Source: a phage | Direction: 5' to 3' (one strand) | Sequence record: PV730300.1 | Length of the DNA stretch: 64,000 bases | Shown here: piece after piece, positions 14,853-54,950 of the stretch | Layout of the letters: the number at the start of each line of letters is the position of its first letter | How positions within the stretch are numbered: position 1 is the stretch's first letter | Made by a program: the position numbers and the translations under genes | Notes under the pieces: generated by a model | Seen by the model: the letters and a program-made list of their open reading frames with translations, nothing else | What the model was told of the DNA's origin: nothing | Database searches by the model: none

Positions 14853-15325
14853 TGGCAGATTTAACTACGATCAAAATTTCTGATCTTACACAAACAACCT
14901 CTGTGTCTGATACAGATTTCTTTGTAACAGATCAGGCTGGAATAACAAAGAAAACTTCTTTGAAAGTGCTGTTGAGTGGTGCAGGGGTAACTAGAAACCG
15001 TCTGAATGCACGGGGAACAGTAACTAGCACCTTGGTATTAGATATTAGTTCGGCAGAATATTTTTCAGCAACTTTATCTTCTGCAACGTGCACAATTAGT
15101 TTTACTAATATTCCAGTAGCAACAAATGCAGTTTTAAACTTTACTTTAGCTTTGCGTCAAGGAAGTGGTGCAAATAAAGTCGTATGGCCTTCTTCTGTAA
15201 AATGGAGTTTTGGTCGTTCCCCAGTTTTGAGTTATCGTCAAGGTGCAACAGACACTTTTGAGTTTATCAGTTATGATAATGGAGCAACTTGGACAGGTAG
15301 CTTAGTTTTAGCAGGAGTTATTTAA
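14852..15325 (+). CDS. Baseplate / tail structural protein
   Basis: 157 aa ORF with overlapping stop-start to both neighbours. Confidence 0.4.
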   Translation: MADLTTIKISDLTQTTSVSDTDFFVTDQAGITKKTSLKVLLSGAGVTRNRLNARGTVTSTLVLDISSAEYFSATLSSATCTISFTNIPVATNAVLNFTLALRQGSGANKVVWPSSVKWSFGRSPVLSYRQGATDTFEFISYDNGATWTGSLVLAGVI

Positions 15326-18201
15326 TGTCAAGAGTTAAGCACAATATTGACAACACGTTTCAGTTGATTGAAGGGTTGGTTCAGTTTTTGGAAAGAAATA
15401 CTGGGCTTACCATAGATCCTACGGTTCAGCATTACATTATCAACCCACAAAACGTATTGGCGAACAACAGACACTTTATTAACTGGACAGCGCAGGAAGG
15501 GCAACCAAACGGTGACGCTACTACCGAAGGTCAATCTGTGCTTATCACTGGTTTTGCTTATGCATATTTGGCTACAGGGGATAAAAAATATCTTGAATCT
15601 GCCGAGAAGTATTGGCAAGCCTATATAGATCACTTCTTCGGGGGCCAACCTATTCCTGATCCTCCGGCTAAGTATCGTCCCAACTGGATCATCAATGGTA
15701 AAGAACCACGTTTAGCACATTACCCTCTCACAGATGATGGGTATCCTACGCACGGCGGGTTCAAAGGTAGCATGATGACTTGGATTAACGGAAGGACTGT
15801 TATTCCTAAAGGTGCACCGCATTGGGGGGAATACTTAGATAAAGCTTGGTTTGCTTTCAATGGCAATCTTGGTTGGAACTCCGTTAACGCAACAGTGTAT
15901 GCAACTAACCCAGATGGTTCAACCAACTGGAAAGAATATGGAGATCAGTGGGACGTTGAATGGATTATAGATCGTCTAGGACGTAAAGTTGACTGGGATG
16001 GTAACATTTTATCCACTGGGCATAGCTTTGCAGAATATGGAACAGTGCAACTTAAAAACGCTTCTGTGAACGGTGACTATAAATTCAACTACGCTACATG
16101 CAACCCTGTAGAACACGGTGGATATCTGCTTAAGCGTAATGAGATGTGGCATAACCGTCCTGTAAACGTTCCGGTAGAGTTAGGTTATCAAGACAATGCT
16201 TCCGATGCTGAAACGTGGTGGTGTGATGCAAACTACTTGATGTATCAGATCACAGGAGAGAGAAAATACTGGCTTTGCTGGCAATCTTCTTTATTGTTGT
16301 GTCAAGACTACTCAAACATTGATATGTTTGATAAATTCTTCCGTAGATCTACGACAGCAATAATTCCTTTTACAGATGGTATCTCGTATGATTACTCATA
16401 CCCATCTACAGCAATACCTAAATATTCTCGTGACGAATTAGGATACACAGTAATTCGCCAAGATGTTTCAGCACAAACAACTCTAGAACAACAGGCAGTT
16501 TGGTTCAGAGTAGATCAGAATTCAAAACTGCGTATTGAGTTTCAAGGTGTAGATGATGCAGGGGAAGGTGTTCTTTTCCGTCCAGAGCTAGAATTAAGCA
16601 AAACTAAGAGTGAAACAGACACAGTGACATATCGTTGTGGCTTACCTCTTGGTGCAGCTAATATGACTAAGATGGATATACCTTTATCTAGTTTTATGCG
16701 CACTGAACCTCCTGGAGGTGGTGTATATATTATTGCTGAACCTAGAATCATTGTTGACTGGGGAAGCAATACTGTGATACAATATAAATATGCAACTGGT
16801 ATTGCTGGGACAAATAGTGATCAGATAGTTTCTGCTAATATGGATTCAGATGGTGGTTTTACTATTGGGTTTTGGTTAACACCAACTAAAACAACCAATT
16901 TAAAATCTATTACGTATCGTTCATACGCAGATGATTTTAACATCACTATTACGGATTCCGCAGGTTGGAGATGGTGGGCCATGTTAGAAAAAACAAATTC
17001 TGCATGGGTTACTAAAGCTTTAAGTCCTGCTGATTTCAAATTAAGTACTTGGCAACCTAATCACAATGACACAGAGACAAAACCTTCGTCAATAAACCTG
17101 ACTGCTGTTGATCAGATGAACATTGCATTGGATTCTGAACCTGCAAATGGCTTGACAGGGGCAATCGACTTTTATTGCGTTAACGATATCCCATCTTTGT
17201 ATTCTTCAGCCGCTGGTGATGATTACACAATGTATTTCAGGGTTACAGTTTCATCTGAAAATCCTTATACAGCAAAACTTGGAGATTGTACAATACTGGA
17301 CTACAAACTTGACAGTTTGAATTATACTCCAGGAATCATTCCATTTTCCAATATTAGTGATCCTAACACAGCATTATATGATGGTTGGCGTGGTATTCCT
17401 TACCCAGGTTATCAGTATCCATCCTTATATTGTTTTAAAGGGAGAGATATTGACTGGGTTCGTATGAACAACAGTATAGACTTTTTATATGATTCACAAA
17501 TGTGGTTTTATAATAAGTTTGCCCCTGTAATGCCTGGGCCAATGGCACAAGCTTATGTTTGGGATCGTTGGGATGCTCATAAATATGGAAACAAAAATGA
17601 GTTCACAATGTATCATTGGAACGATAAAGCTTGGGATGGTTATGAAGCAAGAGCATTCTTCTGTGCGTGTCATACGGTATACGAACTAAAGCGACGAGGA
17701 GCCGAAGTTCCTGAAAAACTTTTAACAGTTTGTAAAAACTGGATCAACTATCTGAAATGGTTCCAAGATAACAACGAAGGAAGAACACCAACAATATTTT
17801 ATCCCAATGGAGAAGTGGCTGCGCCTGTAGATGACTTTACAAGTCACATGTCTGCGCTCTTTATGGCGGGATGTGCTATAATGGGGATGGCTGGATATGA
17901 TTCAGAAATTCCTAACATTAAAATAGTAGCAGACCGCTGTTTTGAACTTATTCAGGAAAACTATATTGTTCTTGGTCCTAATCACGTCATGAATGGTTGT
18001 TGGAGTGCTGCTCCTAGACCAGACAGTGATAACGGAGTCTTCTTTGGCTTCCACGCTGGAGAGTTGTTACGTGGTTTTGGGTTGTATGCCTTATACAAAA
18101 AACTTAATCCCCAAAATGCATTACCTGTTTTGGATTCGAGCAATATTCCTGCACTTACTGTTTTGACAATGGCAAACATTAGTGTGGACGTTACCAAGTA
18201 A
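15325..18201 (+). CDS. Large baseplate or fibre-associated structural protein
   Basis: 958 aa, Trp/Tyr/Asn-rich, within baseplate cluster; no motif recognised. Confidence 0.45.
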   Translation: MSRVKHNIDNTFQLIEGLVQFLERNTGLTIDPTVQHYIINPQNVLANNRHFINWTAQEGQPNGDATTEGQSVLITGFAYAYLATGDKKYLESAEKYWQAYIDHFFGGQPIPDPPAKYRPNWIINGKEPRLAHYPLTDDGYPTHGGFKGSMMTWINGRTVIPKGAPHWGEYLDKAWFAFNGNLGWNSVNATVYATNPDGSTNWKEYGDQWDVEWIIDRLGRKVDWDGNILSTGHSFAEYGTVQLKNASVNGDYKFNYATCNPVEHGGYLLKRNEMWHNRPVNVPVELGYQDNASDAETWWCDANYLMYQITGERKYWLCWQSSLLLCQDYSNIDMFDKFFRRSTTAIIPFTDGISYDYSYPSTAIPKYSRDELGYTVIRQDVSAQTTLEQQAVWFRVDQNSKLRIEFQGVDDAGEGVLFRPELELSKTKSETDTVTYRCGLPLGAANMTKMDIPLSSFMRTEPPGGGVYIIAEPRIIVDWGSNTVIQYKYATGIAGTNSDQIVSANMDSDGGFTIGFWLTPTKTTNLKSITYRSYADDFNITITDSAGWRWWAMLEKTNSAWVTKALSPADFKLSTWQPNHNDTETKPSSINLTAVDQMNIALDSEPANGLTGAIDFYCVNDIPSLYSSAAGDDYTMYFRVTVSSENPYTAKLGDCTILDYKLDSLNYTPGIIPFSNISDPNTALYDGWRGIPYPGYQYPSLYCFKGRDIDWVRMNNSIDFLYDSQMWFYNKFAPVMPGPMAQAYVWDRWDAHKYGNKNEFTMYHWNDKAWDGYEARAFFCACHTVYELKRRGAEVPEKLLTVCKNWINYLKWFQDNNEGRTPTIFYPNGEVAAPVDDFTSHMSALFMAGCAIMGMAGYDSEIPNIKIVADRCFELIQENYIVLGPNHVMNGCWSAAPRPDSDNGVFFGFHAGELLRGFGLYALYKKLNPQNALPVLDSSNIPALTVLTMANISVDVTK

Positions 18202-18209
18202 GGGGTAAA

Positions 18210-20363
18210 ATGAAACAAGCTATATTTACTGTCACGCGAGACAAGAGAGTAAATGCGAGTTCATTTAACTACACGACTGTTGACGGAACAGCAGTCGCTG
18301 GTAGAGATTATATTGCAAAATCGGGAACACTTGTGTTCCCTGATGATGCTGATTCTGCTACTATTGTGGTTGAAGTATTTGAACGACCAAAGAACTCAAT
18401 AGATCTTAACTTCTCCCTCCAAGTTTCAGGGATTAGTCAAAATAACATGATGGTTGAAACAACCATCAATTGTATTATAACTACTATCCAAGAAAATACT
18501 ACTCCAATAACTTGGACTACAAAAGACGTTAAAATGTTCTCTCCTATGTATTGGACAATAGATTCTCAAGCAACGGAAAGTTGTTCTATTGTATCTCATG
18601 GAGACTCTTTTACTGCAAGATTTGTAAACAGAACAACAGCAGGTTTGGCAGGGGTTATCTGGAGCACAGTTGACAAATATGACCATAAAGGTGTTGGGTA
18701 TTTACCCCACACAGATTTAAGTTCAGAGAAACTTTGGTTTAAAATGGAAATTAGTCAAAACATGCCAGGTTTTAAAGAAGAACCTTTGGTGCCGACTTTG
18801 ACTGTAACCCTCCTGGATAAAAGTGTTCATTATGTCAGTTTAGGATTCTATGCTTCAGATATTTCAGAAGATGGTAAAACAGCCACAATCAAGCTAGATT
18901 TTGGTAATATCTTTTCTGGCCCTAATAATGATATTCCTTTGGATATGAGTGCCGTAGACAATATTTTCTTCTCTTTGATTACAGCAAGGTATGAAAAAAT
19001 AGAGGAGATTGTACCTATTGACAGTCAAGAGGCTTGGTTTACTTTCACTCTTCTTGAACCTACTTCTGGTTATAGTATGATGAAAGTCAGCAACCTTGTC
19101 CAGCCTGAACATGATATTCGCATGTGCACATCTTATGATGATATGTATAACCTGACTCCAGAGAGAGTTATTTATAATACATATGCACTAGGTTATCGTG
19201 GAATGATTAACCATTACAACGGAATGTCTCACTATTATGAGTTCTCATGGAACGGAACATCTTGGGCTTTAAATAGATCTGTTTTCCTGAATCCGGCTAC
19301 AGAAGCTTGGCTTAACAGTTTCCATTCTATAGCTAATGAAAATGGCTACACAATAATGAACTCTTTGAGTTTTGAGTTGATGAGCACAGTTTGTCCTGTT
19401 GAATGGGTCCAGCATGATTGGAACGATGCTCTTGCAGCAACAGGGTATAAGCCTCCTAGTTACGTGTTGTCTCCAACTATTGACGAAGGCATGGAATATT
19501 TGCAAAATGTTATTAACAAAATAGCATCTATTTCTCAAGCTAATAACATTCCAGTCGTCATTCAAATTGGTGAACCTTGGTGGTGGTATAATACAGCAAG
19601 TAAAATGCCTTGCATATACGATTACACTACCAAACTGGCATTCAACACAGAAACTGGCTTATTTGCACAAGATGCAGGAACAATAGATAATTATAAAACA
19701 GGAACGCCGTTTGACGAATACTATGCGTTTTTGTCTCGTAAACTAGGATTAAGAGTTACAAAGTTTGCAACAGACACTAGAGCAACTTATCCAGGAGCTA
19801 AAGTAACATTGCTGCCATTCTTACCATCAATTATCGGCAATGGTTTAATGGAGAAAGTTAACTTTCCGTCTGATTACTACATTCCTGAAGCTTTTGATTT
19901 TTATTGTTCAGAGTGTTACGACTGGCTTCTGGAAGGTAAAATGATGAAAGCATTTGATGCAATTACCATACCACATGAAAAATTAGGTTTTGAATATTCT
20001 GATATTCACTATCTTGCAGGTTTTGTTCCAGATGCTACTCTTGCCCCTTTGTATGGCTTTGATCCTGAATCAAACTACCGCACGTATCTTTGGAAAATGA
20101 TTATAGGTAACATAGTGTTGAACGCCAATAAGTTTGACGGACTTACACAATATATATGGGCCTATCCTCAAATAATGCACGATTCTATCACGGTAGTTAA
20201 TTCTCAATCCCAAGTTTTCTATATGGGTAACGTGCCTTTGAACGCTTATTTACAGGATATCACTCTTAAGCAGGTAAATGTTGAGATTGCCACCCTAAGT
20301 GGAATTACATTAGCCACTAAATCTGGAGAAGATTTAGTAACAACACAAAAATTTTATATATAG
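18210..20363 (+). CDS. Large tail structural protein
   Basis: 717 aa ORF with SD in baseplate/fibre cluster. Confidence 0.45.
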   Translation: MKQAIFTVTRDKRVNASSFNYTTVDGTAVAGRDYIAKSGTLVFPDDADSATIVVEVFERPKNSIDLNFSLQVSGISQNNMMVETTINCIITTIQENTTPITWTTKDVKMFSPMYWTIDSQATESCSIVSHGDSFTARFVNRTTAGLAGVIWSTVDKYDHKGVGYLPHTDLSSEKLWFKMEISQNMPGFKEEPLVPTLTVTLLDKSVHYVSLGFYASDISEDGKTATIKLDFGNIFSGPNNDIPLDMSAVDNIFFSLITARYEKIEEIVPIDSQEAWFTFTLLEPTSGYSMMKVSNLVQPEHDIRMCTSYDDMYNLTPERVIYNTYALGYRGMINHYNGMSHYYEFSWNGTSWALNRSVFLNPATEAWLNSFHSIANENGYTIMNSLSFELMSTVCPVEWVQHDWNDALAATGYKPPSYVLSPTIDEGMEYLQNVINKIASISQANNIPVVIQIGEPWWWYNTASKMPCIYDYTTKLAFNTETGLFAQDAGTIDNYKTGTPFDEYYAFLSRKLGLRVTKFATDTRATYPGAKVTLLPFLPSIIGNGLMEKVNFPSDYYIPEAFDFYCSECYDWLLEGKMMKAFDAITIPHEKLGFEYSDIHYLAGFVPDATLAPLYGFDPESNYRTYLWKMIIGNIVLNANKFDGLTQYIWAYPQIMHDSITVVNSQSQVFYMGNVPLNAYLQDITLKQVNVEIATLSGITLATKSGEDLVTTQKFYI

Positions 20364-20371
20364 GAGTAAAA

Positions 20372-22012
20372 ATGTCAACTACAATTACTAATTTACCTGA
20401 AACATCAAAAGTTAATGGTTCTGATTACCTGGTTTTAGACCAACCTGATAAGACTGTTAAAAGCACAGTTTCCAACTTTCTTACTGACACTGGGGTGGTT
20501 TTAGCCACCCAGTTGAAAGATACAGATGGAGCAGGTTTAGTTAACACATCTAGCGGAGATTCAGTCCAAACCGTTATTGATTATCTGATAGATACTGACC
20601 TGGCTCATCTTAGTAATCTGGCTACTGCCAAAGCGTCTACCATTAAAGCCAACAACATTAATATTGCTTATAAATATGGTAATGTTTCTTATCTCTCTAC
20701 CGGCACTACTGGTACGCCTTCAACTGGTAACGCACATACTTTTTATGATGCAACTGGTAAGGGGTTTAAGATAAATGCACCGCAACGGCAGAAAAACACT
20801 TCTGGTGTAATAGCATTCTCGGAAGTATGGACTAAGTTAGATTTAGACCCTACTCTATTCGAAAAAGCAATATCGCTAGGAATTGGTACATTCATGTTCT
20901 ATACCTGGACAGCGCCAGTACAGACATATAAAGATTTCCTCGACCTTGCGAGTATTTACGGATTTGATGTTATTTTACAGGCAGTACCAAATAGTACGTA
21001 TTCATCCGACCTGGACGCGGATTTCGCTAAACTGTCTCCTTTATTCGACCATGACGCTGTAGTAGGGTTATACCTATTCGACGAGCCGAACTTGTCTACA
21101 TACCCTCTTACCCGCCAGGGTGAGATTATTGCTAAAGCGAAAACACTTAGTAACCTACCGCTGTACGCCGCTAGTAATGCAGAAGTTAACGGGGAATCTC
21201 TACCACTCCATATGGATATTGATTACGTATTTACATCCCAGTACGCGCATTTCATAGGTGCAGTTGGTATCCGTCGATACGCTGCCTCTATGTGGTCGGC
21301 TATGGAGGAGGAGGGGATGAGGGCAGGACGTATCATCCCGTTACTAACAGCGTATTGGTATGAGAACGAGGCCCCAACTTTAAAATCCGCACAGATTACA
21401 GCGGTTAATAACTTCATCTGTAAAAACTTTTCTAAGATTGGCATGTGGGCTTTCTATGCTAATAAAAATGGGCACTTTCTGGAAAACGATGACCAGATAT
21501 ATAATCTCGTGAAACAAAGTCTTGCCATCCGCAAGAGTAAAATAAAAGACTGTAAGTTGATACGTACACTATTCCGAAAGGCTAACGCCCTGCCCGCTAA
21601 CTGCTATAAATACCAGACAAAACCAACTGTCGTAGGGGATGTGTTCTGGCTAGATCCTGCATCAACCGCTACATGGAACGACCCCGCAGGAGTTATTCGA
21701 ATTAAGACAGGGGAGCAATTCGCCATAAACTTTGGGCGACCAGTACGTCTGGAGGCGATTATAGCAGCTTTCACCGACAACAACGGTTCAAGTAACAGCG
21801 CCACCCTGTCCCTCACTTTCAACCCAACTATCGCATCTGGTAGGGTGTATGATACTACTGTCACAAAAGTAGGCGGCGGCGATTTTGAGTGGTTTTTTAC
21901 GGATTTATCGAACCCACCACATTTAGTTACTACAGTGGCTATAAAGGTTGTATCGTCTACTGGCTCTGACTATCTGATATTGGAGCGTATTGGTTTTGTA
22001 GTAACTGAGTAA
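20372..22012 (+). CDS. Tail fibre / tailspike-like protein
   Basis: 546 aa; N-terminus (TNLPETSKVNGSDYLVLDQ) resembles fibre/spike attachment domains; followed by strong terminator. Confidence 0.45.
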   Translation: MSTTITNLPETSKVNGSDYLVLDQPDKTVKSTVSNFLTDTGVVLATQLKDTDGAGLVNTSSGDSVQTVIDYLIDTDLAHLSNLATAKASTIKANNINIAYKYGNVSYLSTGTTGTPSTGNAHTFYDATGKGFKINAPQRQKNTSGVIAFSEVWTKLDLDPTLFEKAISLGIGTFMFYTWTAPVQTYKDFLDLASIYGFDVILQAVPNSTYSSDLDADFAKLSPLFDHDAVVGLYLFDEPNLSTYPLTRQGEIIAKAKTLSNLPLYAASNAEVNGESLPLHMDIDYVFTSQYAHFIGAVGIRRYAASMWSAMEEEGMRAGRIIPLLTAYWYENEAPTLKSAQITAVNNFICKNFSKIGMWAFYANKNGHFLENDDQIYNLVKQSLAIRKSKIKDCKLIRTLFRKANALPANCYKYQTKPTVVGDVFWLDPASTATWNDPAGVIRIKTGEQFAINFGRPVRLEAIIAAFTDNNGSSNSATLSLTFNPTIASGRVYDTTVTKVGGGDFEWFFTDLSNPPHLVTTVAIKVVSSTGSDYLILERIGFVVTE

Positions 22013-22022
22013 TAATACATTC

Positions 22023-22048
22023 CCCTCTTAGGAGGGGTCTTTTTCTTA
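22023..22048 (+). terminator. Rho-independent terminator
   Basis: cccctc-ttag-gagggg hairpin followed by tctttttctt. Confidence 0.6.
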
Positions 22049-22067
22049 GAAAAACAAAGAGGTACTT

Positions 22068-22220
22068 ATGAACGAATTATTCTCCCAAGGCGGTATTGCC
22101 CCAGGTATTACTGCCATTGGTCTTAGTGCTGCCGGAGTATTAGTTCACTCTGCTGGTAATGTGGACCTTGGGGAATTAGCTGCATATCGTGATTTAAAAA
22201 GTAATGAGAACGCACTATGA
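22068..22220 (+). CDS. Small membrane protein (1 predicted TM helix), 50 aa
   Basis: ATG with AAGAGG SD; hydrophobic stretch IAPGITAIGLSAAGVLV; stop overlaps next start (ATGA); below the 60-aa ORF track cutoff. Confidence 0.35.
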   Translation: MNELFSQGGIAPGITAIGLSAAGVLVHSAGNVDLGELAAYRDLKSNENAL

Positions 22221-22459
22221 GAAAATTTTTAATAGGTATGTTCTGTACATATCCTGATAATAAAGTCAGTTCTACGAAAGTCTGGAACGCTGTAGGCATG
22301 TCGGTTATGACAGGCATGTTTATCTTTTTAGGAATAGAAAAAGAAATTCCTGAATGGATGGGTTGGGCTTTTGTTTTCATGATAACTCCTTCTCGCCTCA
22401 TGAAAAATCTTATTGATTTACGCTGGGGCAGATCACAATCTACCAAAGAGGATGACTAA
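22217..22459 (+). CDS. Small membrane protein with two predicted TM helices and charged C-terminus (holin-like topology)
   Basis: 80 aa; hydrophobic segments VWNAVGMSVMTGMFIFLGI and WMGWAFVFMITP; C-terminal RWGRSQSTKEDD. Confidence 0.4.
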   Translation: MRKFLIGMFCTYPDNKVSSTKVWNAVGMSVMTGMFIFLGIEKEIPEWMGWAFVFMITPSRLMKNLIDLRWGRSQSTKEDD

Positions 22460-23946
22460 TGGACGAATATGGTTTGACAGATGCGGGATTTGTAATCCCG
22501 ACTTTTGACGATGTTTTAAACAACTACATGACAGCAGTAAAAAACACATTTGGTGCAGATGCAGCCACTTCGGAAGATACTGTGATCGGACAACTGTTTA
22601 GAATAATTGCATACACAGATTACACATTGTGGGAAGGTATGCAAGGTGTTTATAATACTCAAACACTGGATGGTGCAGAAGGTATTTATCTTGATGAAAT
22701 CTTTTCTAAACGCGGTTTCTATCGAGCAGGTGCAGCAGCAAGTACAGGTTATGCATATGTTAAGAGTAATAACAAAGCAGCTTGGACTTATGAGCTAGGC
22801 ACGGATATTTACTTCAACTCTGATAGTGATATGAACTACTATGTTAGCACACCAACCATGTTGAATGCTAAGATTGCAGCTTATCAAATCTCTCGTGCTA
22901 ATGCAACTGCTACAGGTGTTCCAAATATTACTTTTTATGCACAAAGTGCGGTCGATGGAGGACTAAACAGCAAAACACTTGCACCTGGTTCTTCTACATT
23001 TATAACCGATCTTGAAACTTTTATCAAGGCAAATTTAACAGAAGCTGATCGTAGTCTTGTATTTTCTGATTCAGGTAACTTATCAATTGGTTTTACTTCT
23101 TTAACCAGTGATACTCCAGTGGGGCTGGTAACTCCTATTAAATTTTATGCTAGTGTTCCGGTTGGAACCAAGTGGAGTGAGATTCCGGTAGTTGCAGCAG
23201 AGAAAGGATACAATCCTGTTGGTGTGGAGTCTATTACAGGGATATCTTCTACCTTTACAGGTTATCTTGACAGTGGTAACTTCTATTCATTTTCTCCTGG
23301 TCGAGATGTTGAGACAGACGCAGAATTCCGCTCTCGTTTCAATGACAACGTTGATGAAGCTAACGCAGGGACACGAGCAGCTATTGTGAAAGCTCTGTTG
23401 CTTACAGATGGTGTTACTAAGGTGAAGATTTATGATAACCCTACGTTACATGATCAAGAACACGCTCCAGCTATGACTTTCCAGACTATAGTTTATGGTG
23501 GCAGTGCAGAAGAAATTGCAAATGTTATCTATAAAACCAAACCAATCAACACTTTGACACACGGAACAACTAACATAACAGTTACAACAGAAGATGGAGG
23601 ACAAGAAATTATTCGCTTCTCCCCTGGTGCTTCTGCTACGTATTCTGTAAAACTTGTTTATCAAACTGTCAACGGAACAACTTTAAGTGGAACAGAAAAA
23701 CAAAACATCGTAGAAGCTTTACAAAACCTGCAAGCTTACTTTGAGTTAGGTTCTTCAGTAACGAACGATCAAATCAAAGGTGTTATTTATGCAGCACTTG
23801 CTTTTGGACGCTTGACTTCTCTTCGTGTTTATGTTAAACTTAATACTGAGGATGACAGTAAATATACAGAGAATAATATAGTTCCTGCTTATAATGTTGT
23901 CCCTTCTTTTGACCTTGATAACATTTCTTACGAGTATGGAGTGTAA
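22459..23946 (+). CDS. Baseplate J-like protein (gp6 / gpJ family)
   Basis: 495 aa; position between baseplate genes and tail fibre; Gly/Asp-rich N-terminal region suggested as Baseplate_J-like; not motif-confirmed. Confidence 0.5.
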   Translation: MDEYGLTDAGFVIPTFDDVLNNYMTAVKNTFGADAATSEDTVIGQLFRIIAYTDYTLWEGMQGVYNTQTLDGAEGIYLDEIFSKRGFYRAGAAASTGYAYVKSNNKAAWTYELGTDIYFNSDSDMNYYVSTPTMLNAKIAAYQISRANATATGVPNITFYAQSAVDGGLNSKTLAPGSSTFITDLETFIKANLTEADRSLVFSDSGNLSIGFTSLTSDTPVGLVTPIKFYASVPVGTKWSEIPVVAAEKGYNPVGVESITGISSTFTGYLDSGNFYSFSPGRDVETDAEFRSRFNDNVDEANAGTRAAIVKALLLTDGVTKVKIYDNPTLHDQEHAPAMTFQTIVYGGSAEEIANVIYKTKPINTLTHGTTNITVTTEDGGQEIIRFSPGASATYSVKLVYQTVNGTTLSGTEKQNIVEALQNLQAYFELGSSVTNDQIKGVIYAALAFGRLTSLRVYVKLNTEDDSKYTENNIVPAYNVVPSFDLDNISYEYGV

Positions 23947-23948
23947 AA

Positions 23949-24578
23949 ATGGCAGTGAGTGTTGACCATGTAACAACTTGGGCCAGTATCAACGAAGATG
24001 TTAAAAACCTTCTGATTGAAGATTTTAAATCTTCTCCTAACATTGTCAAGCTCCTCTACATCGTATCCAGTGAAAAGCAAAAGATAGATCAGGCAATGAT
24101 CTATCTTGCTAAACACCGCTTGATCTCTACAGCCACAGGCAAATACCTAGATATTCTAGGGGAAGAAATGGGGATCGAACGTAATGGCTCTGATGATGAA
24201 GAGTATAGAACAATATTAAAAATCAGGGCTTACCGCGTAGCCTCATCGGGGACTCGTGGTGACATAATTGATATCTTCGCCCGTTTCACAGGAACAGAGC
24301 GTGAAACGCTTAATACTTACGTAGGTTTGAATAAAACCTTTGATGTGTTTTTCTACAACCTGTGTCTTCAATCTGATCAAGCTTTAGAGCAGTTGCTAAG
24401 TGTTTTCCCTATTATTAGTAGCTACCGTCTTGGAGCAAAAGCAGGATCAGCTTTTGGTTTTAGTTCTTATTATGCTACCAAACCGCCTCATGGTATTGGT
24501 GGTTTAGGTTCCCTGTACATGGAATCTACTGGGGATGAAACAGGACGCATGTGTACGCTTCTCAAGCAAATAGATTAA
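23949..24578 (+). CDS. Baseplate protein (gpI-like)
   Basis: 209 aa ORF immediately downstream of J-like gene, as in P2/Mu-type baseplate operons. Confidence 0.4.
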   Translation: MAVSVDHVTTWASINEDVKNLLIEDFKSSPNIVKLLYIVSSEKQKIDQAMIYLAKHRLISTATGKYLDILGEEMGIERNGSDDEEYRTILKIRAYRVASSGTRGDIIDIFARFTGTERETLNTYVGLNKTFDVFFYNLCLQSDQALEQLLSVFPIISSYRLGAKAGSAFGFSSYYATKPPHGIGGLGSLYMESTGDETGRMCTLLKQID

Positions 24579-24587
24579 GGAGTTTAA

Positions 24588-25649
24588 ATGGCGAAGCCAA
24601 TATATTATCCTGACTGGGCTACACAAACTGTAACGCTCCCAGGAACTTTAAACACAAACAAAATTAGACCTAAAGAAACCATCCGCACAGTTGGTATGGA
24701 TTATGGTCAAATCATGACTTGCGAAGAAATGAACTGGATTCTTAATAATATCGGTTTATGGATTCGCTATTTGGTGGATGACTTTCTTCCAACTTTACCT
24801 AATACCTACTTGCCTTTAGTGGGAACTAAGATTACAATGGCAGGTGATGCTACTGGTGAGGCTACTTGGAACGGTAACAAAGAAGTTACTTTATCTATCC
24901 AAGTTCAAGATAACAGTCATAATCACTTGTCGGCAAACATTACAGATGCCACTAGTTCAACAGTAACACCAAACGTGTTGGTAAAACGTGATGCGGGTGG
25001 TGCTATTTATGGTGGCGATGTTTATGTTAACGGTACTTCCACAACAGATCCTGCAACACTGTTCTTCAAAAACTTCGCAGGACAAACAAATGGTGAGATT
25101 TCTGCCGAGTATCAAAGCGGAGGTCAGCTTTACATCTATCGTAGAAATCCTAGCACAGGTAATGTATCGGCAGGTGTTCGTTTATATGATGCAGGTTATG
25201 TTCTAATAGACAGTCCAAGATCAAACAGTGGGCAAGATACTTCTAACGGAAACGCTTTAGTTCGCTTAGATTATCTGAATTCTCGTTTGACTTCTCTTCA
25301 GAACACATTGCAGACGAATATTAACACTGTTCAAAACAACCTGAATAGTGTTAACAACAACCTCTCTTCTCGTATAAACAATGTAGAAAGTAATCATCAA
25401 AGTCAGATTACAAATAACTACAACTATGCTAACGGAACCTTTGTAAGAGATATTCGTTATACTAGCCAAGGTGTGTATTATCCCCCAGGGAACGAGGTTT
25501 CTTGGACTTATATCTGTTCTTCTGGTTATGTTCTTTCTGGTATTATCGTACAGGAAACAGGACGTAGCTCTGCGGATAACATCGGTGGGGTTTACTTCAA
25601 ACGCCTCCAGCGCAACGTTAACGGAAACTGGTACGATATTGGAGGCTAA
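24588..25649 (+). CDS. Tail fibre protein
   Basis: 353 aa; Asn/Ser/Thr/Gly-rich with heptad-like NNLNSVNNNLSSRINNVESN segment; followed by putative assembly chaperone. Confidence 0.45.
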   Translation: MAKPIYYPDWATQTVTLPGTLNTNKIRPKETIRTVGMDYGQIMTCEEMNWILNNIGLWIRYLVDDFLPTLPNTYLPLVGTKITMAGDATGEATWNGNKEVTLSIQVQDNSHNHLSANITDATSSTVTPNVLVKRDAGGAIYGGDVYVNGTSTTDPATLFFKNFAGQTNGEISAEYQSGGQLYIYRRNPSTGNVSAGVRLYDAGYVLIDSPRSNSGQDTSNGNALVRLDYLNSRLTSLQNTLQTNINTVQNNLNSVNNNLSSRINNVESNHQSQITNNYNYANGTFVRDIRYTSQGVYYPPGNEVSWTYICSSGYVLSGIIVQETGRSSADNIGGVYFKRLQRNVNGNWYDIGG

Positions 25650-26204: not shown

Positions 26205-26540
26205 ATGGAATTTCAAGAAGCATGGGGACTTGCAAAGGATGCAATAATCCCTTTAATCGGAGTCATCTGGTTCTTTTTCAAACAAAAAATGGATAAATTC
26301 GGCTCTGATCTTGAGGAAATGGAGGAGAAAAGTCGAGAGCTAGAGAAGAAGTTGGTCTTTGTTGAATCAACTTATGCAACTAAAGCCGAACTTACCCAGA
26401 TGCTAAATCAAATTAACTCTACATTAATGGCAAATAATAACACCCTTGAGCAAAAAATTGAAAAGATTATGGACCTCAAGAATGCGACTATCCAAATGAT
26501 GCTAGATGACATAGTTAAACGTACACAGAATAAGGGGTAA
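26205..26540 (+). CDS. Membrane-anchored coiled-coil protein
   Basis: 111 aa; N-terminal hydrophobic helix AIIPLIGVIWFFF then Glu/Lys-rich predicted coiled coil. Confidence 0.4.
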   Translation: MEFQEAWGLAKDAIIPLIGVIWFFFKQKMDKFGSDLEEMEEKSRELEKKLVFVESTYATKAELTQMLNQINSTLMANNNTLEQKIEKIMDLKNATIQMMLDDIVKRTQNKG

Positions 26541-46424: not shown

Positions 46425-46946
46425 TTAACTCCCCTTTGGTAGATAGAAACCATGCACTTTATCTCGATAAACAAGACGCATATCACGTTCCCAGTGTGTC
46501 CTTATATTCCGTTTCTTGAAGTATAGAGCACCTTTAGTAACATCTAAAACAGACCGCAATTCAGGAAAATGTTTCTCTAAATAAAGTAAACGCTCCGCTA
46601 TTGCTTTTGCTTCCTGCCACTTATCTTTCTCTGTTACGTTAAAAGTTTTCGCATATGAGAATTGTCCTTTCTGGAACAAGACTCCTCTGACTGTGTTAGG
46701 GAAGTAGGTATCATTTCTTCTGTTGATTACCACATTCCCAACGGCATTCATTCCTTTTTTACCCAGACCGCGACCTTCTGCGTAAATTGCACAAGCTAAT
46801 AGAATTTTATCATTATATTGCTTTGTACATTTGTGAACTACTTTAGCGGTTTTTACGTTTGCAGCTTCGGCTTTCGCCACAACAGGTGTAAATGTAAAAG
46901 CAGTTAAGGATAGTAACGCAACTGTTACAAAGTTTTTTATCAGCAA
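46425..46946 (-). CDS. Secreted cell-wall hydrolase (SleB/CwlJ-type), candidate endolysin
   Basis: N-terminal signal-like sequence ending AKA-EA; LLACAIYAEGRG...VGNVVINR resembles the SleB/CwlJ hydrolase signature; TTG start with AAGGAGG SD. Confidence 0.55.
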   Translation of the reverse strand: MLIKNFVTVALLSLTAFTFTPVVAKAEAANVKTAKVVHKCTKQYNDKILLACAIYAEGRGLGKKGMNAVGNVVINRRNDTYFPNTVRGVLFQKGQFSYAKTFNVTEKDKWQEAKAIAERLLYLEKHFPELRSVLDVTKGALYFKKRNIRTHWERDMRLVYRDKVHGFYLPKGS

Positions 46947-47046: not shown

Positions 47047-47649
47047 TTATGGACATTCATACCATTCTTTTTTACCACCGAAGGCCATCACCACATCACA
47101 AATATCCAGACCAGCTTTACCTACACCATATGCTTTCAGCTTCCATTCCCCATCTTCACGAACCAAGGAAGCCACGTGGCAGATTGTGTTGCCAGCTACT
47201 TCAGGAGCCAGGAAGTCAAAATCCAGAATTTCCACATTGCGCTCGGAGTCGAAGATTTTAAGCATACCTTCAGAAGCATGACCAAAACGTTTCAGACCTG
47301 TATCATCATCAATGGTCAGGACAAAGGCAATCTCTTGTGCATCAGGAGAGATTTTAGCCAGAGTAATATCAATCTGCTCCATGCTGCCAGTTCCATCACG
47401 AACATCGTCACCAGCGAAGGTAGAACGTTCAGGATCAAACTTGTTAGCATAGCAAACCAGGTGACGTGCAGACAGCATTTCAGGATTGCCAGCGGCATTG
47501 TGACGACAAACCAGTGCACTTACATCCAGATCCAGTTTAGAATCAGATTTCCAAGAGAATTCCAGGCGCAGTTCTTTCAGAGCCGGAGCAACTTTCTTCA
47601 GGGAAATTTTTTCGCTAGAGCCTTTTTTCAGGGAAATTTTATCAGTCAT
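47047..47649 (-). CDS. TerD-family protein (tellurite resistance / stress response domain)
   Basis: ISLKKGSSEKISLKK N-terminus, AGDDVRDGTGSMEQ, EIAFVLTIDDDT and REDGEWKLKAYGVGKAGL align block by block with the Klebsiella TerD sequence as I recall it. Confidence 0.8.
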   Translation of the reverse strand: MTDKISLKKGSSEKISLKKVAPALKELRLEFSWKSDSKLDLDVSALVCRHNAAGNPEMLSARHLVCYANKFDPERSTFAGDDVRDGTGSMEQIDITLAKISPDAQEIAFVLTIDDDTGLKRFGHASEGMLKIFDSERNVEILDFDFLAPEVAGNTICHVASLVREDGEWKLKAYGVGKAGLDICDVVMAFGGKKEWYECP

Positions 47650-47934: not shown

Positions 47935-48163
47935 TTCTTCCTCCTAATGTTATCTCCGGTTTGTATATACGAAGAATTATAGCATTTTCATTTTCTTTGT
48001 CAACCCATTCTTCATAATCGGGCCATACATGAATCTCTACTCTACTTACAATATCTTCCATTCGCACAGTCCCAATGAAATACTCTTTGAGACTGCGTAT
48101 AATGAAAGCTTCTCTCTCGCGCCAATAATTTTCTATGACTTGAGAGGCAAGCTCGTCGATCAT
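47915..48163 (-). CDS. Hypothetical protein
   Basis: 82 aa ORF overlapping stop/start with neighbours. Confidence 0.35.
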   Translation of the reverse strand: MIDELASQVIENYWREREAFIIRSLKEYFIGTVRMEDIVSRVEIHVWPDYEEWVDKENENAIILRIYKPEITLGGRSVKLRN

Positions 48164-48954
48164 TTTTTAGCACCTACTTTAACAACCCACTCTCCGAACT
48201 CTTCAGATAAGAGTTTGTCATAAAGCTCTGAATCTGTCAAGTCTAAATCTTTAATGCCAATAAAACCAACATTATCATAAGCATTTGCCAGTTCTTTCAG
48301 GAAGCCAAACTTCTCATTACCAACGCCAACCATGAACCAATAGATAGGCTTATTCTTATTTTCTTCAATAAGACGACGAACAGCACTAGGATCACCATTC
48401 TCACCATCCGTCTGGAAGAATACAACACCAGGGGTAACGTCAGCACCTGGTTCAGATACAGCTACAACTTTTTCACGCTCTACAGACACTGTTTCAGTTT
48501 TACCAAGCAGACGATTAAAGAAGCCTTTCTTTGGAGCCTCCTCTTGTACCACTTGTTTAGTGGTAATATATTTAGTAACAGTGCCAAAATACTCATCGTA
48601 GATATCCGCCATTACAGGGGCGTAATTTGTTCCACCTCCGATACGAACATTACGCATACATTTACCAACATAGTCATCGTAAACATCTGCTGTTGCTGGA
48701 GTAAGCTCTTGGGAACTCGTATTGAAGGCCCACATATCAATTTGTTGATTATCGTCGAACAGCATACCAAAAGGAAGCAGTTTACCTACAAAATCACTCA
48801 CTACCCCACTAGAATATAGACCATGCATACTACCAGAAATATCTAGAGCACATGCTACACGAAGAACAATCTTACCTTCATTCAGGTTCTTATTCTTTTT
48901 CAGAGAGAAAGCAAGGTTTTCTTGACGTTTTTTCAGGCTGATTTTCTCGGACAT
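48160..48954 (-). CDS. von Willebrand factor A domain protein (TerF/TerY-like)
   Basis: MIDAS motif DISGSM plus GGGTNY; N-terminus KISLKK...FSLKK echoes the TerD N-terminal strand. Confidence 0.65.
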   Translation of the reverse strand: MSEKISLKKRQENLAFSLKKNKNLNEGKIVLRVACALDISGSMHGLYSSGVVSDFVGKLLPFGMLFDDNQQIDMWAFNTSSQELTPATADVYDDYVGKCMRNVRIGGGTNYAPVMADIYDEYFGTVTKYITTKQVVQEEAPKKGFFNRLLGKTETVSVEREKVVAVSEPGADVTPGVVFFQTDGENGDPSAVRRLIEENKNKPIYWFMVGVGNEKFGFLKELANAYDNVGFIGIKDLDLTDSELYDKLLSEEFGEWVVKVGAKK

Positions 48955-54728: not shown

Positions 54729-54950
54729 TTATTTTGTTGAATGAGAGGAAAAGATTCCTCGTAATACCGCCAGAATAAACGAAACACAAACCACGGTCCA
54801 GAAGGTTACTGGGACAGTGATATCTGCATGACCCATAACTTCAGCAACATAGTTGTAAGCCAGCAACAGTAACCAAGCTGGAATCAAACTAAGCATAAAA
54901 GCAATAACAAAAAAGCTTACCACTGCAACAATACCTGCAAAAACACCCAT
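54729..54950 (-). CDS. Small membrane protein (two predicted TM helices)
   Basis: 73 aa, almost entirely hydrophobic. Confidence 0.4.
   Translation of the reverse strand: MGVFAGIVAVVSFFVIAFMLSLIPAWLLLLAYNYVAEVMGHADITVPVTFWTVVCVSFILAVLRGIFSSHSTK

Follow-up and report, generated by a model that had tools for sequence, protein, structure and literature searches.

A tailspike-gene relic and a candidate holin-type gene in the baseplate cluster of a Phapecoctavirus-like phage

Gene arrangement at the locus

We analyzed two small open reading frames (ORFs), designated ORF-A and ORF-B, which reside at positions 22,068 to 22,459 of a 64,000-nucleotide stretch of phage DNA (sequence record PV730300.1). 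The whole stretch is referred to as the window. The 5 kb around the locus (20000-25000) showed 97-99% identity over ~70% of their length to Phapecoctavirus genomes (Ro121c4YLVW, dw-ec, anhysbys and others), and the window stems from a Phapecoctavirus-like Escherichia coli myophage (Stephanstirmvirinae; related to phi92 and rV5). The non-aligning ~30% of this segment represents the tailspike gene (20372-22012), at whose place close relatives possess different tailspikes. A preceding sequence-only reading had described two small ORFs overlapping by ATGA inside a baseplate cluster, and this arrangement was recovered: both frames are open on the plus strand, and at 22459 the stop codon of ORF-B overlaps the start codon of the baseplate wedge gene (TAATG). 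Across the locus the gene order matches that of phi92. Downstream of the wedge gene, genes for a baseplate protein, a tail fibre and tail-fibre assembly follow. The central features are:

22068..22220, plus strand: ORF-A, 50 amino acids, open; relic of a tailspike anchor domain
22217..22459, plus strand: ORF-B, 80 amino acids, open; phrog_1322, orthologue of phi92 gp144, assigned to the DUF2644 superfamily, putative holin-class protein
22459..23946, plus strand: baseplate wedge gene (Baseplate_J / T4 gp6-like; Pfam PF04865, phrog_6)

Conservation and predicted topology of the ORF-B product

Scans of both ORFs against Pfam and NCBIfam yielded no match, even at permissive E-values, and a homology search with the single ORF-B sequence disclosed only close relatives without informative names. 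The ORF-B product matched phrog_1322 ('membrane protein') over its full length (1.8e-27; residues 1-80 on profile positions 3-82 of 87). By tblastn, homologues were identified in 372 phage records belonging to Phapecoctavirus, Justusliebigvirus, Vequintavirinae (rV5 gp29, PVP-SE1 gp42, KB57_042, CR8), Aeromonas Plateaulakevirus and others. In the inspected records of large myophages the gene always resided in the baseplate/tail-fibre module, its position therein being variable. A search of 1.84 billion representative proteins with the ORF-B family profile retrieved just 21 clusters, all of them comprising proteins of 74-212 amino acids. The ratio of nonsynonymous to synonymous divergence (dN/dS) of ORF-B amounted to 0.05-0.16, with dS reaching ~1. 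Near-invariant positions of the family are S18 and K21 (SxTK ahead of helix 1), E46-W47 at the start of helix 2 and G71 (LRWG). On the opposite strand, a 107-amino-acid ORF (22123-22446, minus strand) runs across the greater part of the two ORFs; given the strong purifying selection on the plus-strand frame of ORF-B, it is in all likelihood spurious.

The sequence-only reading had ascribed two transmembrane (TM) segments and a charged C-terminus to the 80-residue product. Topology prediction agreed with this description, giving a charge-free helix at residues 22-40, a weaker one at ~46-65 and a charged tail:

22280..22336, plus strand: predicted TM helix 1, codons 22-40 (VWNAVGMSVMTGMFIFLGI), Kyte-Doolittle hydropathy (KD) 1.65, charge-free throughout the family
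22352..22411, plus strand: predicted helix 2, codons 46-65 (EWMGWAFVFMITPSRLMKNL), weakly hydrophobic, beginning at E46-W47 and kinked at Pro58

After helix 2 come the conserved motif LRWG and a charged tail predicted to be disordered (RSQSTKEDD). Throughout the family this tail is hydrophilic and varies in length. AlphaFold2 (AF2) modelled helices at residues 2-9, 19-41, 46-56 and 59-70 and a disordered tail, at a predicted local distance difference test score (pLDDT) of 66. In the family, the N-terminal region is positively charged (net +2.2; 3.7 K+R versus 1.5 D+E) and the six-residue loop between the helices negatively (net -1.1). The product is thus predicted to form a helical hairpin, for which the charge pattern indicates that both termini lie in the cytoplasm and a short acidic loop in the periplasm; this is the layout of class II holins. 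The small size, at least one TM domain and a hydrophilic, charged C-terminal tail are likewise traits of the holin class. We also considered a dual-start motif (M1/M8) in ORF-B and rejected it, as M8 is conserved in close relatives only and lacks a usable Shine-Dalgarno (SD) sequence.

Relationship of the ORF-B family to DUF2644

Comparison of alignments by HHalign linked the ORF-B family to DUF2644 (PF10841) with a probability of 98.5% and an E-value of 2.9e-15 over 78 columns; a narrow ORF-B family alignment still gave 89.7% and 1.9e-6. Judged by these profile comparisons, ORF-B is homologous to DUF2644 at the superfamily level. The gathering threshold of the Pfam family is 22 bits. The proteins encoded at the distant loci L033 and L034 are bona fide members (29.7 and 29.9 bits, respectively), while the protein P0056 scored below the cut-off (14.4 bits).

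A hidden Markov model (HMM) of ORF-B, built from close homologues only, recognized the phrog_1322 relatives that are encoded in lysis cassettes (L021, L023, L026, L030 and L039 type) with 41-55 bits. The same proteins matched phrog_1322 at 4e-18 to 8e-23. With this HMM, L033 and L034 reached 18.5 and 16.5 bits, respectively, and the Ralstonia phage protein L035 was a marginal match (7.6 bits).

Distant relatives of ORF-B reside in lysis cassettes

In about seven (seven to eight) independent distant contexts, a member of the ORF-B family, designated X in the following gene orders, is located directly downstream of the gene of a signal-less endolysin. The contexts of P0071, P0054, P0050, P0058 and P0059 were left out since they were too short or uninformative.

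L026/L027 (contig of a ~100-kb myophage): sheath initiator, Amidase_3, X, i-spanin (TM and coiled coil), overlapping o-spanin (lipobox MMMGC), wedge
L023: Peptidase_M15_4, X, TM protein, lipoprotein with C-terminal TM (u-spanin-like)
L030/L031: two membrane proteins, GH108 endolysin with peptidoglycan-binding domain, X (ATGA overlap), Rz-like (phrog_89), Rz1/LysC-like
L021: 67-amino-acid protein with two TM segments, 131-amino-acid protein (M15-like motif, no Pfam match), X
L039: T7-holin-like protein of 75 amino acids, X, Rz, Rz1
L033 and L040-L042 (Mu-like prophages of Klebsiella and E. coli): GemA, Mor, x, GH19, DUF2644, i-spanin-like, further genes, Mu portal
L034 (Yersinia phage vB_YenM_281): M15-like peptidoglycan hydrolase, DUF2644, Rz, Rz1
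L035 (Ralstonia phage): endolysin-like, X (marginal match, 7.6 bits), Rz/Rz1

The endolysins adjoining X belong to at least four sequence-confirmed enzyme families; Amidase_3, M15_4, GH108, GH19 and M15-like enzymes occur. None of them exhibits an N-terminal signal or a segment resembling a signal-anchor-release (SAR) sequence, so that they would need a membrane lesion to reach the cell wall. In six of the seven endolysin-X contexts, X is followed by a spanin-like gene. In the L026 and L034 cassettes X is the sole non-spanin membrane protein.

The metagenomic L026 contig relates these cassettes to the locus studied here. Its wedge and sheath initiator proteins are each 40% identical to those of the window (E-values of 3e-115 and 5e-36, respectively), and its complete lysis cassette lies just upstream of the wedge gene, at the place where the window contains ORF-B directly upstream of the homologous gene.

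In the Mu-like prophages (L033, L040-L042), the DUF2644 gene overlaps the 3′-end of the signal-less GH19 endolysin gene in the Mor-controlled late region. In Mu-like phages whose endolysins are cytoplasmic, the missing holin may be DUF2644. The same loci encode an 81-amino-acid protein with an N-terminal TM segment and a coiled coil, a layout like that of the Mu gp25 releasin, which did not match DUF2730.

ORF-A is a relic of a tailspike gene

ORF-A had been described as a single-TM membrane protein of 50 amino acids, a view that had to be abandoned. It matches tailspike PHROGs (phrog_7992 tail spike, 4.6e-11), and the Gly/Ala-rich stretch taken for a TM segment aligns to residues 62-95 of CBA120 TSP1 (4oj5, E 3.2e-8) and also to G7C gp63.1 (4qnl). 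Structure 4oj5 is a crystallised, soluble N-terminal tailspike domain, and the hydrophobic-looking stretch is part of it. In tailspike chains of this type, the N-terminal domain serves as the attachment (anchor) module. In close relatives, the site of ORF-A is occupied by an ORF of 101-102 amino acids that covers residues 1-94 of 4oj5 (E 3.6e-49) and likewise matches 4qnl (1.6e-43); the 102-amino-acid forms additionally match CBA120 TSP3 and TSP4 (5w6f and 5w6h).

ORF-A has retained MNELFSQGG and then jumps in frame to IAPG, ~52 codons having been deleted (QGG/IAPG). It thus consists of tailspike residues 1-9 and ~62-94, fused to a junction peptide of nine residues. The same deletion junction occurs in UP17, alia, UAB_1 and J-01. 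Among the relatives, relics of 102, 49-50, 32 and 9 amino acids or none at all were found: AV126 and JLBYU50 harbor a 32-amino-acid form (MESQLSQPKQVINVKVNKQSIAH-DLKSNENAL) and 92CQ a stub of nine, while EC.P2 has kept the junction sequence without an ATG-initiated ORF upstream. The relic DNA, including the upstream hairpin and ribosome-binding site, shares 85-87% identity with the 5′-ends of tailspike genes of Kuttervirus (CBA120 orf210) and Gamaleyavirus. Near-identical relic copies exhibit dN/dS values of ~0.5-1.3; ORF-A evolves near-neutrally. Within the 64-kb window no second copy of the anchor domain was found. As ORF-A ends after 50 amino acids at the start of ORF-B and has no receptor-binding or catalytic tailspike body, it is a gene fragment and not a tailspike. 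We conclude that ORF-A is almost certainly a decayed tailspike gene of the CBA120-TSP1/G7C-gp63.1 type, an ordinary by-product of cassette exchange.

ORF-A probably continues to be translated as a leader that ends in the ATGA at the start of ORF-B. As the SD sequence is good for ORF-A (AAAGAGG) and poor for ORF-B, ORF-A may have persisted in this role. We considered whether the frame kept in three relic forms proves selection for coupling, but this argument was weakened by EC.P2, which has no ATG-initiated ORF, and by 92CQ with only nine codons.

Exchange of tailspike cassettes and boundaries of the module

The relic lies at a site where tailspike genes are exchanged, the interval between the gp142-like gene and ORF-B. 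The upstream genes and the signals surrounding ORF-A are:

15325-18201: gp141-like tail protein, phi92-like order
18210-20363: gp142-like protein with 'non-contractile tail sheath' domains, phi92-like order
20372..22012, plus strand: variable tailspike gene, 546 amino acids, tail PHROG matches at the N-terminus; present occupant of the exchangeable cassette site
22022..22037, plus strand: GC-rich hairpin CCCCUC-UUAG-GAGGGG, followed by UCUUUUUCUU; plausible weak-to-moderate intrinsic terminator
22056..22062, plus strand: SD sequence AAAGAGG, 5 nt before the ORF-A start; same motif in locus L001
22191..22216, plus strand: junction box GATTTAAAAAGTAATGAGAACGCACT, 26 nt, encoding ..DLKSNENAL directly before the ATG of ORF-B

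Different relatives carry different tailspikes at this site. In phi92 it is occupied by an endosialidase gene, whereas in Schickermooser and Paula it is empty and ORF-B directly follows the gp142-like gene. Between Phapecoctavirus and Justusliebigvirus, synonymous divergence (dS) was 0.04-0.07 in the relic and ~1.06 in the adjacent ORF-B. This step at the junction of the two ORFs therefore marks a recombination boundary. The interval is a hot spot for tailspike cassettes with recent exchange between genera; ORF-A rides with the exchangeable cassette, while ORF-B is a backbone gene. Owing to these differing histories the two ORFs do not constitute a functional pair.

The junction box was present in 13 cassette-bearing loci with at most one to two base differences or a 1-nt deletion, and differed in L011 and L013. 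It is the common 3′-boundary of cassette-bearing relatives, whatever form of the relic they contain; genomes without a cassette lack it. The hairpin with UCUUUUUCUU, 30 nt upstream of ORF-A, is the conserved 5′-boundary of the relic module. It had been called a strong terminator. A hairpin with a U-rich tail does exist, but its strength is modest (stem of 6 bp, -11.6 kcal/mol; z-score of -0.69 for the 58-nt region), and relatives lack the T-run, as exemplified by L001, which has the same stem with another loop and no T-run. The AAAGAGG motif is inherited from the ancestral tailspike gene.

Other lysis genes and published holin assignments

The sequence-only reading had placed the two ORFs about 24 kb from the only recognisable cell-wall hydrolase, and this distance was borne out:

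46425..46946, minus strand: SleB-like cell-wall hydrolase (equivalent of the phi92 gp170 'endolysin'; spore_SleB 1e-13, endolysin PHROGs)

No other cell-wall hydrolase was recognized in the window. In Phapecoctavirus the endolysin is this SleB-like enzyme, encoded apart from ORF-B (SKA64; PMC10282059). The hydrolase carries a typical N-terminal Sec signal (MLIKNFVTVALLSLTAFTFTPVVAKA/EA), and ORF-B may thus only need to depolarise the membrane. Next to its gene, as with phi92 gp171-173, a gene for a TerD-like stress protein ('KISLKK...'; 47047-47649, minus strand) and a vWA-like gene (48160-48954, minus strand) were noticed by eye. No spanin gene adjoins ORF-B in the window; in rV5, PVP-SE1 and CB7 the spanin genes are located beside the terminase gene (PMC7344957).

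Published holin assignments for this group of phages diverge. The holin of LL12 "could not be positively identified" (PMC6658697), that of rV5 was guessed from topology to be gp129 (PMC3606486), CB7_82 was proposed for CB7 (PMC7344957) and two unnamed small proteins for BME3 (PMC12210895). When gp129 was looked for in the phage studied here, it had no homologue in the window, and it scored 1.6 bits with the ORF-B HMM.

Some other small membrane proteins were observed. A 73-amino-acid ORF in the early/middle region (54729-54950, minus strand; phrog_16065) contains two to three very hydrophobic segments and is another holin-like candidate. The 111-amino-acid 'lipoprotein' encoded at 26205-26540 (plus strand; phi92 gp149, phrog_15210) has neither a Cys residue nor a lipobox, but an N-terminal TM segment and a coiled coil; it did not match DUF2730. 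In Vequintavirinae, the gene of its homologue (PVP-SE1 gp44, rV5 gp31) stands in a row with those of gp43, which has four TM segments, and gp42, the homologue of ORF-B. This gp44-gp43-gp42 trio in the tail-fibre locus might likewise have to do with lysis. Homology of gp43 and gp44 to the membrane proteins next to the L030 endolysin would have made the trio recognisable as a cassette, but a comparison showed that they are not homologous.

Probable function of ORF-B

Taken together, ORF-B is probably involved in lysis, as a holin or as an accessory protein (a probability of roughly 0.8), and we assign roughly 0.6 to its being the actual holin. Among the candidates for the missing holin-type protein of these E. 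coli phages we regard it as the best so far. The assignment draws on the observed homology, conservation and gene context and on the predicted topology, from which we infer hole formation, its timing, the partner enzyme and translational coupling. The location of ORF-B inside an operon of structural genes implies late expression, which would fit a holin: according to the paper on Mu lysis, every holin confirmed by experiment is produced from the late transcript (PMC9239132). The suggestion that the two ORFs might be the holin system gains support for ORF-B alone, decisively from the endolysin/spanin cassettes of its relatives. It fails for a holin/antiholin pair, since ORF-A is a piece of a tailspike gene that close relatives carry in varying forms or lack altogether. 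An antiholin would be a membrane protein conserved together with the holin, whereas relatives that have kept ORF-B lack ORF-A or possess versions of 9-102 amino acids.

According to the simplest reading, ORF-B remained behind in the baseplate operon when the endolysin and spanin genes of an ancestral embedded cassette moved or were replaced. Upstream of it, a former tailspike gene has lost its body by deletion, leaving the 5′-end with the hairpin, the ribosome-binding site and the first codons, and in the present phage 52 further codons have been lost in frame. The remaining ORF-A would at most be a translated leader, whose ATGA stop passes ribosomes to ORF-B. The ORF-B product would then be made late together with the baseplate proteins, accumulate in the inner membrane and, at a set time, permeabilise or depolarise it, either as the holin or as its obligate partner. 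The secreted SleB-like hydrolase, which is the likely enzymatic partner of ORF-B, and the spanins, all encoded elsewhere, would complete lysis.

Several observations weigh against ORF-B being the holin. With a mean KD of 0.64-0.73, helix 2 is only weakly hydrophobic and it includes R60 and K63, the C-terminal tail is net acidic or mixed and not basic, and the AF2 model is of moderate confidence (pLDDT 66). For the homologues, the annotators of PVP-SE1 called one TM segment and the authors of rV5 none. ORF-B remains below the Pfam threshold of DUF2644, with no match even at E <= 10, so that the link to this family needs intermediates or profiles. Neither the ORF-B profile search nor the DUF2644 search brought up a member named holin in the databases, and a literature search found no paper mentioning DUF2644. 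No similarity of ORF-B to named holin families was detected in Pfam, NCBIfam and PHROGs. In the phage studied here ORF-B is unlinked from the endolysin and spanin genes, and its function could therefore have shifted. The EC.P2 locus, having no ATG-initiated ORF upstream, indicates that coupling via ORF-A is not universal. Finally, the cassettes of L021, L023, L030 and L039 contain another holin-like membrane protein, and X could accordingly be an antiholin or accessory factor instead of the hole-former.

This last point leads to the alternative that survives best, namely that ORF-B is a lysis accessory (an antiholin, a timing regulator or an aid to endolysin passage or activation) and that the true holin is encoded elsewhere in the genome. 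Besides the additional membrane proteins of the four cassettes (67 amino acids with two TM segments in L021, 116 amino acids in L023, a multi-TM protein of 126 amino acids in L030 and the 75-amino-acid T7-holin-like protein in L039), the gene order has to be considered. The lysA gene of P2 sits after the endolysin gene and before the spanin genes, which is the position of X. Moreover, a membrane protein of the late cassette of Mu need not be a holin (PMC9239132), and other holin candidates exist, i.e., the 73-residue product of 54729-54950 and rV5 gp129. This explanation does not account for the L026 and L034 cassettes, which possess no other non-spanin membrane protein though their endolysins are signal-less. 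Furthermore, gp129 lacks a homologue in the window whereas ORF-B is conserved across all subfamilies, and ORF-B is not related in sequence to DUF2730. We rate the accessory role as a serious rival, though rather unlikely.

A more speculative extension, to which we give little credence, is that phrog_1322/DUF2644 represents an unrecognised, widespread lysis class whose mechanism is its own and differs from those of classical holins and of pinholins. It would comprise 'post-endolysin' hairpin proteins accompanying signal-less endolysins in Mu-like prophages, mid-sized phages and large myophages of the rV5/phi92 type. In the latter, retention in the baseplate operon with a translational link to the wedge protein could couple the lysis clock to the expression level of tail-assembly genes.

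The two ORFs had also been suggested to be membrane anchors for tail assembly. In a broader form, ORF-B would be such an anchor, an assembly factor of the baseplate or tail fibres or a minor virion protein, and ORF-A a functional plug of the docking site. ORF-B indeed overlaps the wedge gene and in large myophages always lies in the baseplate/fibre module, several GenBank records label the orthologue 'structural protein', and the relatives' 102-amino-acid version of ORF-A comprises the entire anchor domain. We found no evidence for a role in the virion or in assembly: phi92 gp144 goes unmentioned among the modelled virion proteins in a 2026 cryo-electron microscopy paper assigning nearly all baseplate components (PMC13450770), and the annotation table of rV5 gives no mass spectrometry flag for gp29, although this negative evidence is weak. 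The members in Mu-like prophages and small phages are located in lysis cassettes away from tail genes, ORF-A is internally deleted, truncated or absent in close relatives and near-neutral, and the label 'structural protein' seems to have been given by position or by transfer from other records. Taking all this into account, we consider a structural role improbable.

No evidence was found for a superinfection-immunity pair, and it is still less probable that ORF-B alone acts as an exclusion or immunity protein (Imm/Cor/Llp-like role) blocking related phages. In favour of this reading, it is a small inner-membrane protein encoded beside tail-fibre or tailspike genes in every large-myophage relative, and its PHROG category is 'moron, auxiliary metabolic gene and host takeover'. 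Against it, ORF-B belongs to the core genes and is strongly constrained by purifying selection across subfamilies (dN/dS 0.05-0.16; 372 records), unlike a variable accessory, it is presumably co-transcribed with the late baseplate genes it overlaps and not an early or independent moron, its distant relatives occupy endolysin-spanin cassettes, including those of Mu-like prophages, and it resembles no known exclusion family in Pfam, NCBIfam or PHROGs.

Significance and comparison with known systems

Phages similar to rV5, phAPEC8 and phi92 are among the most often isolated E. coli phages and are used in cocktails for therapy and biocontrol. Their holin has no agreed assignment in the literature, where lineage-specific guesses differ; ORF-B offers a single candidate across Stephanstirmvirinae, Vequintavirinae and the Aeromonas relatives, and ties it to the orphan Pfam family DUF2644. 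As a probable new member of a holin-type family it is a modest but useful finding. If true, it would suggest a holin for Mu-like prophages with cytoplasmic endolysins, a point not taken up in the paper on Mu lysis (PMC9239132). Should the SleB-like endolysin be exported independently of the holin, the kind of holin needed by the phage would change. The analysis also corrects database labels: ORF-B is listed there as 'moron', 'structural protein' or 'membrane protein', and the relic ORF-A as 'tail spike protein' or 'tail protein'. Moreover, relic and junction box mark the exact recombination boundaries of a hot spot of tailspike exchange, which is useful for the engineering of host range.

Among known lysis proteins, class II holins and pinholins (phage 21 S68) are comparable to ORF-B in size (~70-110 amino acids) and in having two helices, both ends predicted to be cytoplasmic and a charged C-terminal tail. 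In both, Gly, Ser, Thr and Met are abundant in TM1. Further common traits are the place in a structural operon, implying late expression, and in many family members the adjacency to endolysin and spanin genes. ORF-B differs from these holins by the absence of sequence similarity, by a weak helix 2 with Arg and Lys and by an acidic or mixed tail; in addition, genes of its family come after and not before the endolysin gene.

With DUF2644 (PF10841; Mu-like prophages and other phages), ORF-B shares similarity over the whole length, the size and the two-helix layout. Bona fide members of this family directly follow GH19 or M15-like endolysins. In contrast, ORF-B and its Stephanstirmvirinae and Vequintavirinae relatives are sub-threshold, possess motifs of their own (SxTK, EW, LRWG) and belong to a baseplate/tail-fibre module away from the endolysin.

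The Mu gp25 releasin (DUF2730) and lysis accessory proteins of the P2 LysA type set a precedent for the accessory role: they are small membrane proteins, produced late from genes that immediately follow the endolysin gene, and are not themselves classical holins (PMC9239132). The releasin has one N-terminal TM domain and a cytoplasmic coiled coil, acts on SAR endolysins and shows no sequence relation to ORF-B, whose relatives are paired with signal-less endolysins and have a predicted hairpin topology. As to ORF-A, its lineage is the anchor domain of branched tailspikes (CBA120 TSP1 4oj5, TSP3 5w6f and TSP4 5w6h; G7C gp63.1 4qnl), of which residues 1-9 and ~62-94 only are left, without a receptor-binding or catalytic body.

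The holin gene t of T4 is expressed late, adjoins the tail-fibre genes 37/38 and is unlinked from the endolysin gene e and the spanin genes. Its product T, a 218-amino-acid protein with a single TM segment and a large periplasmic domain, differs from the ORF-B product and is not homologous to it. The arrangement of the genes is nevertheless alike: in both phages the lysis genes are scattered, and the holin, or in the present case the candidate holin, is encoded at the edge of a late tail-fibre/baseplate operon. The authors of rV5 also drew an analogy to T4 for its scattered lysis genes (PMC3606486).

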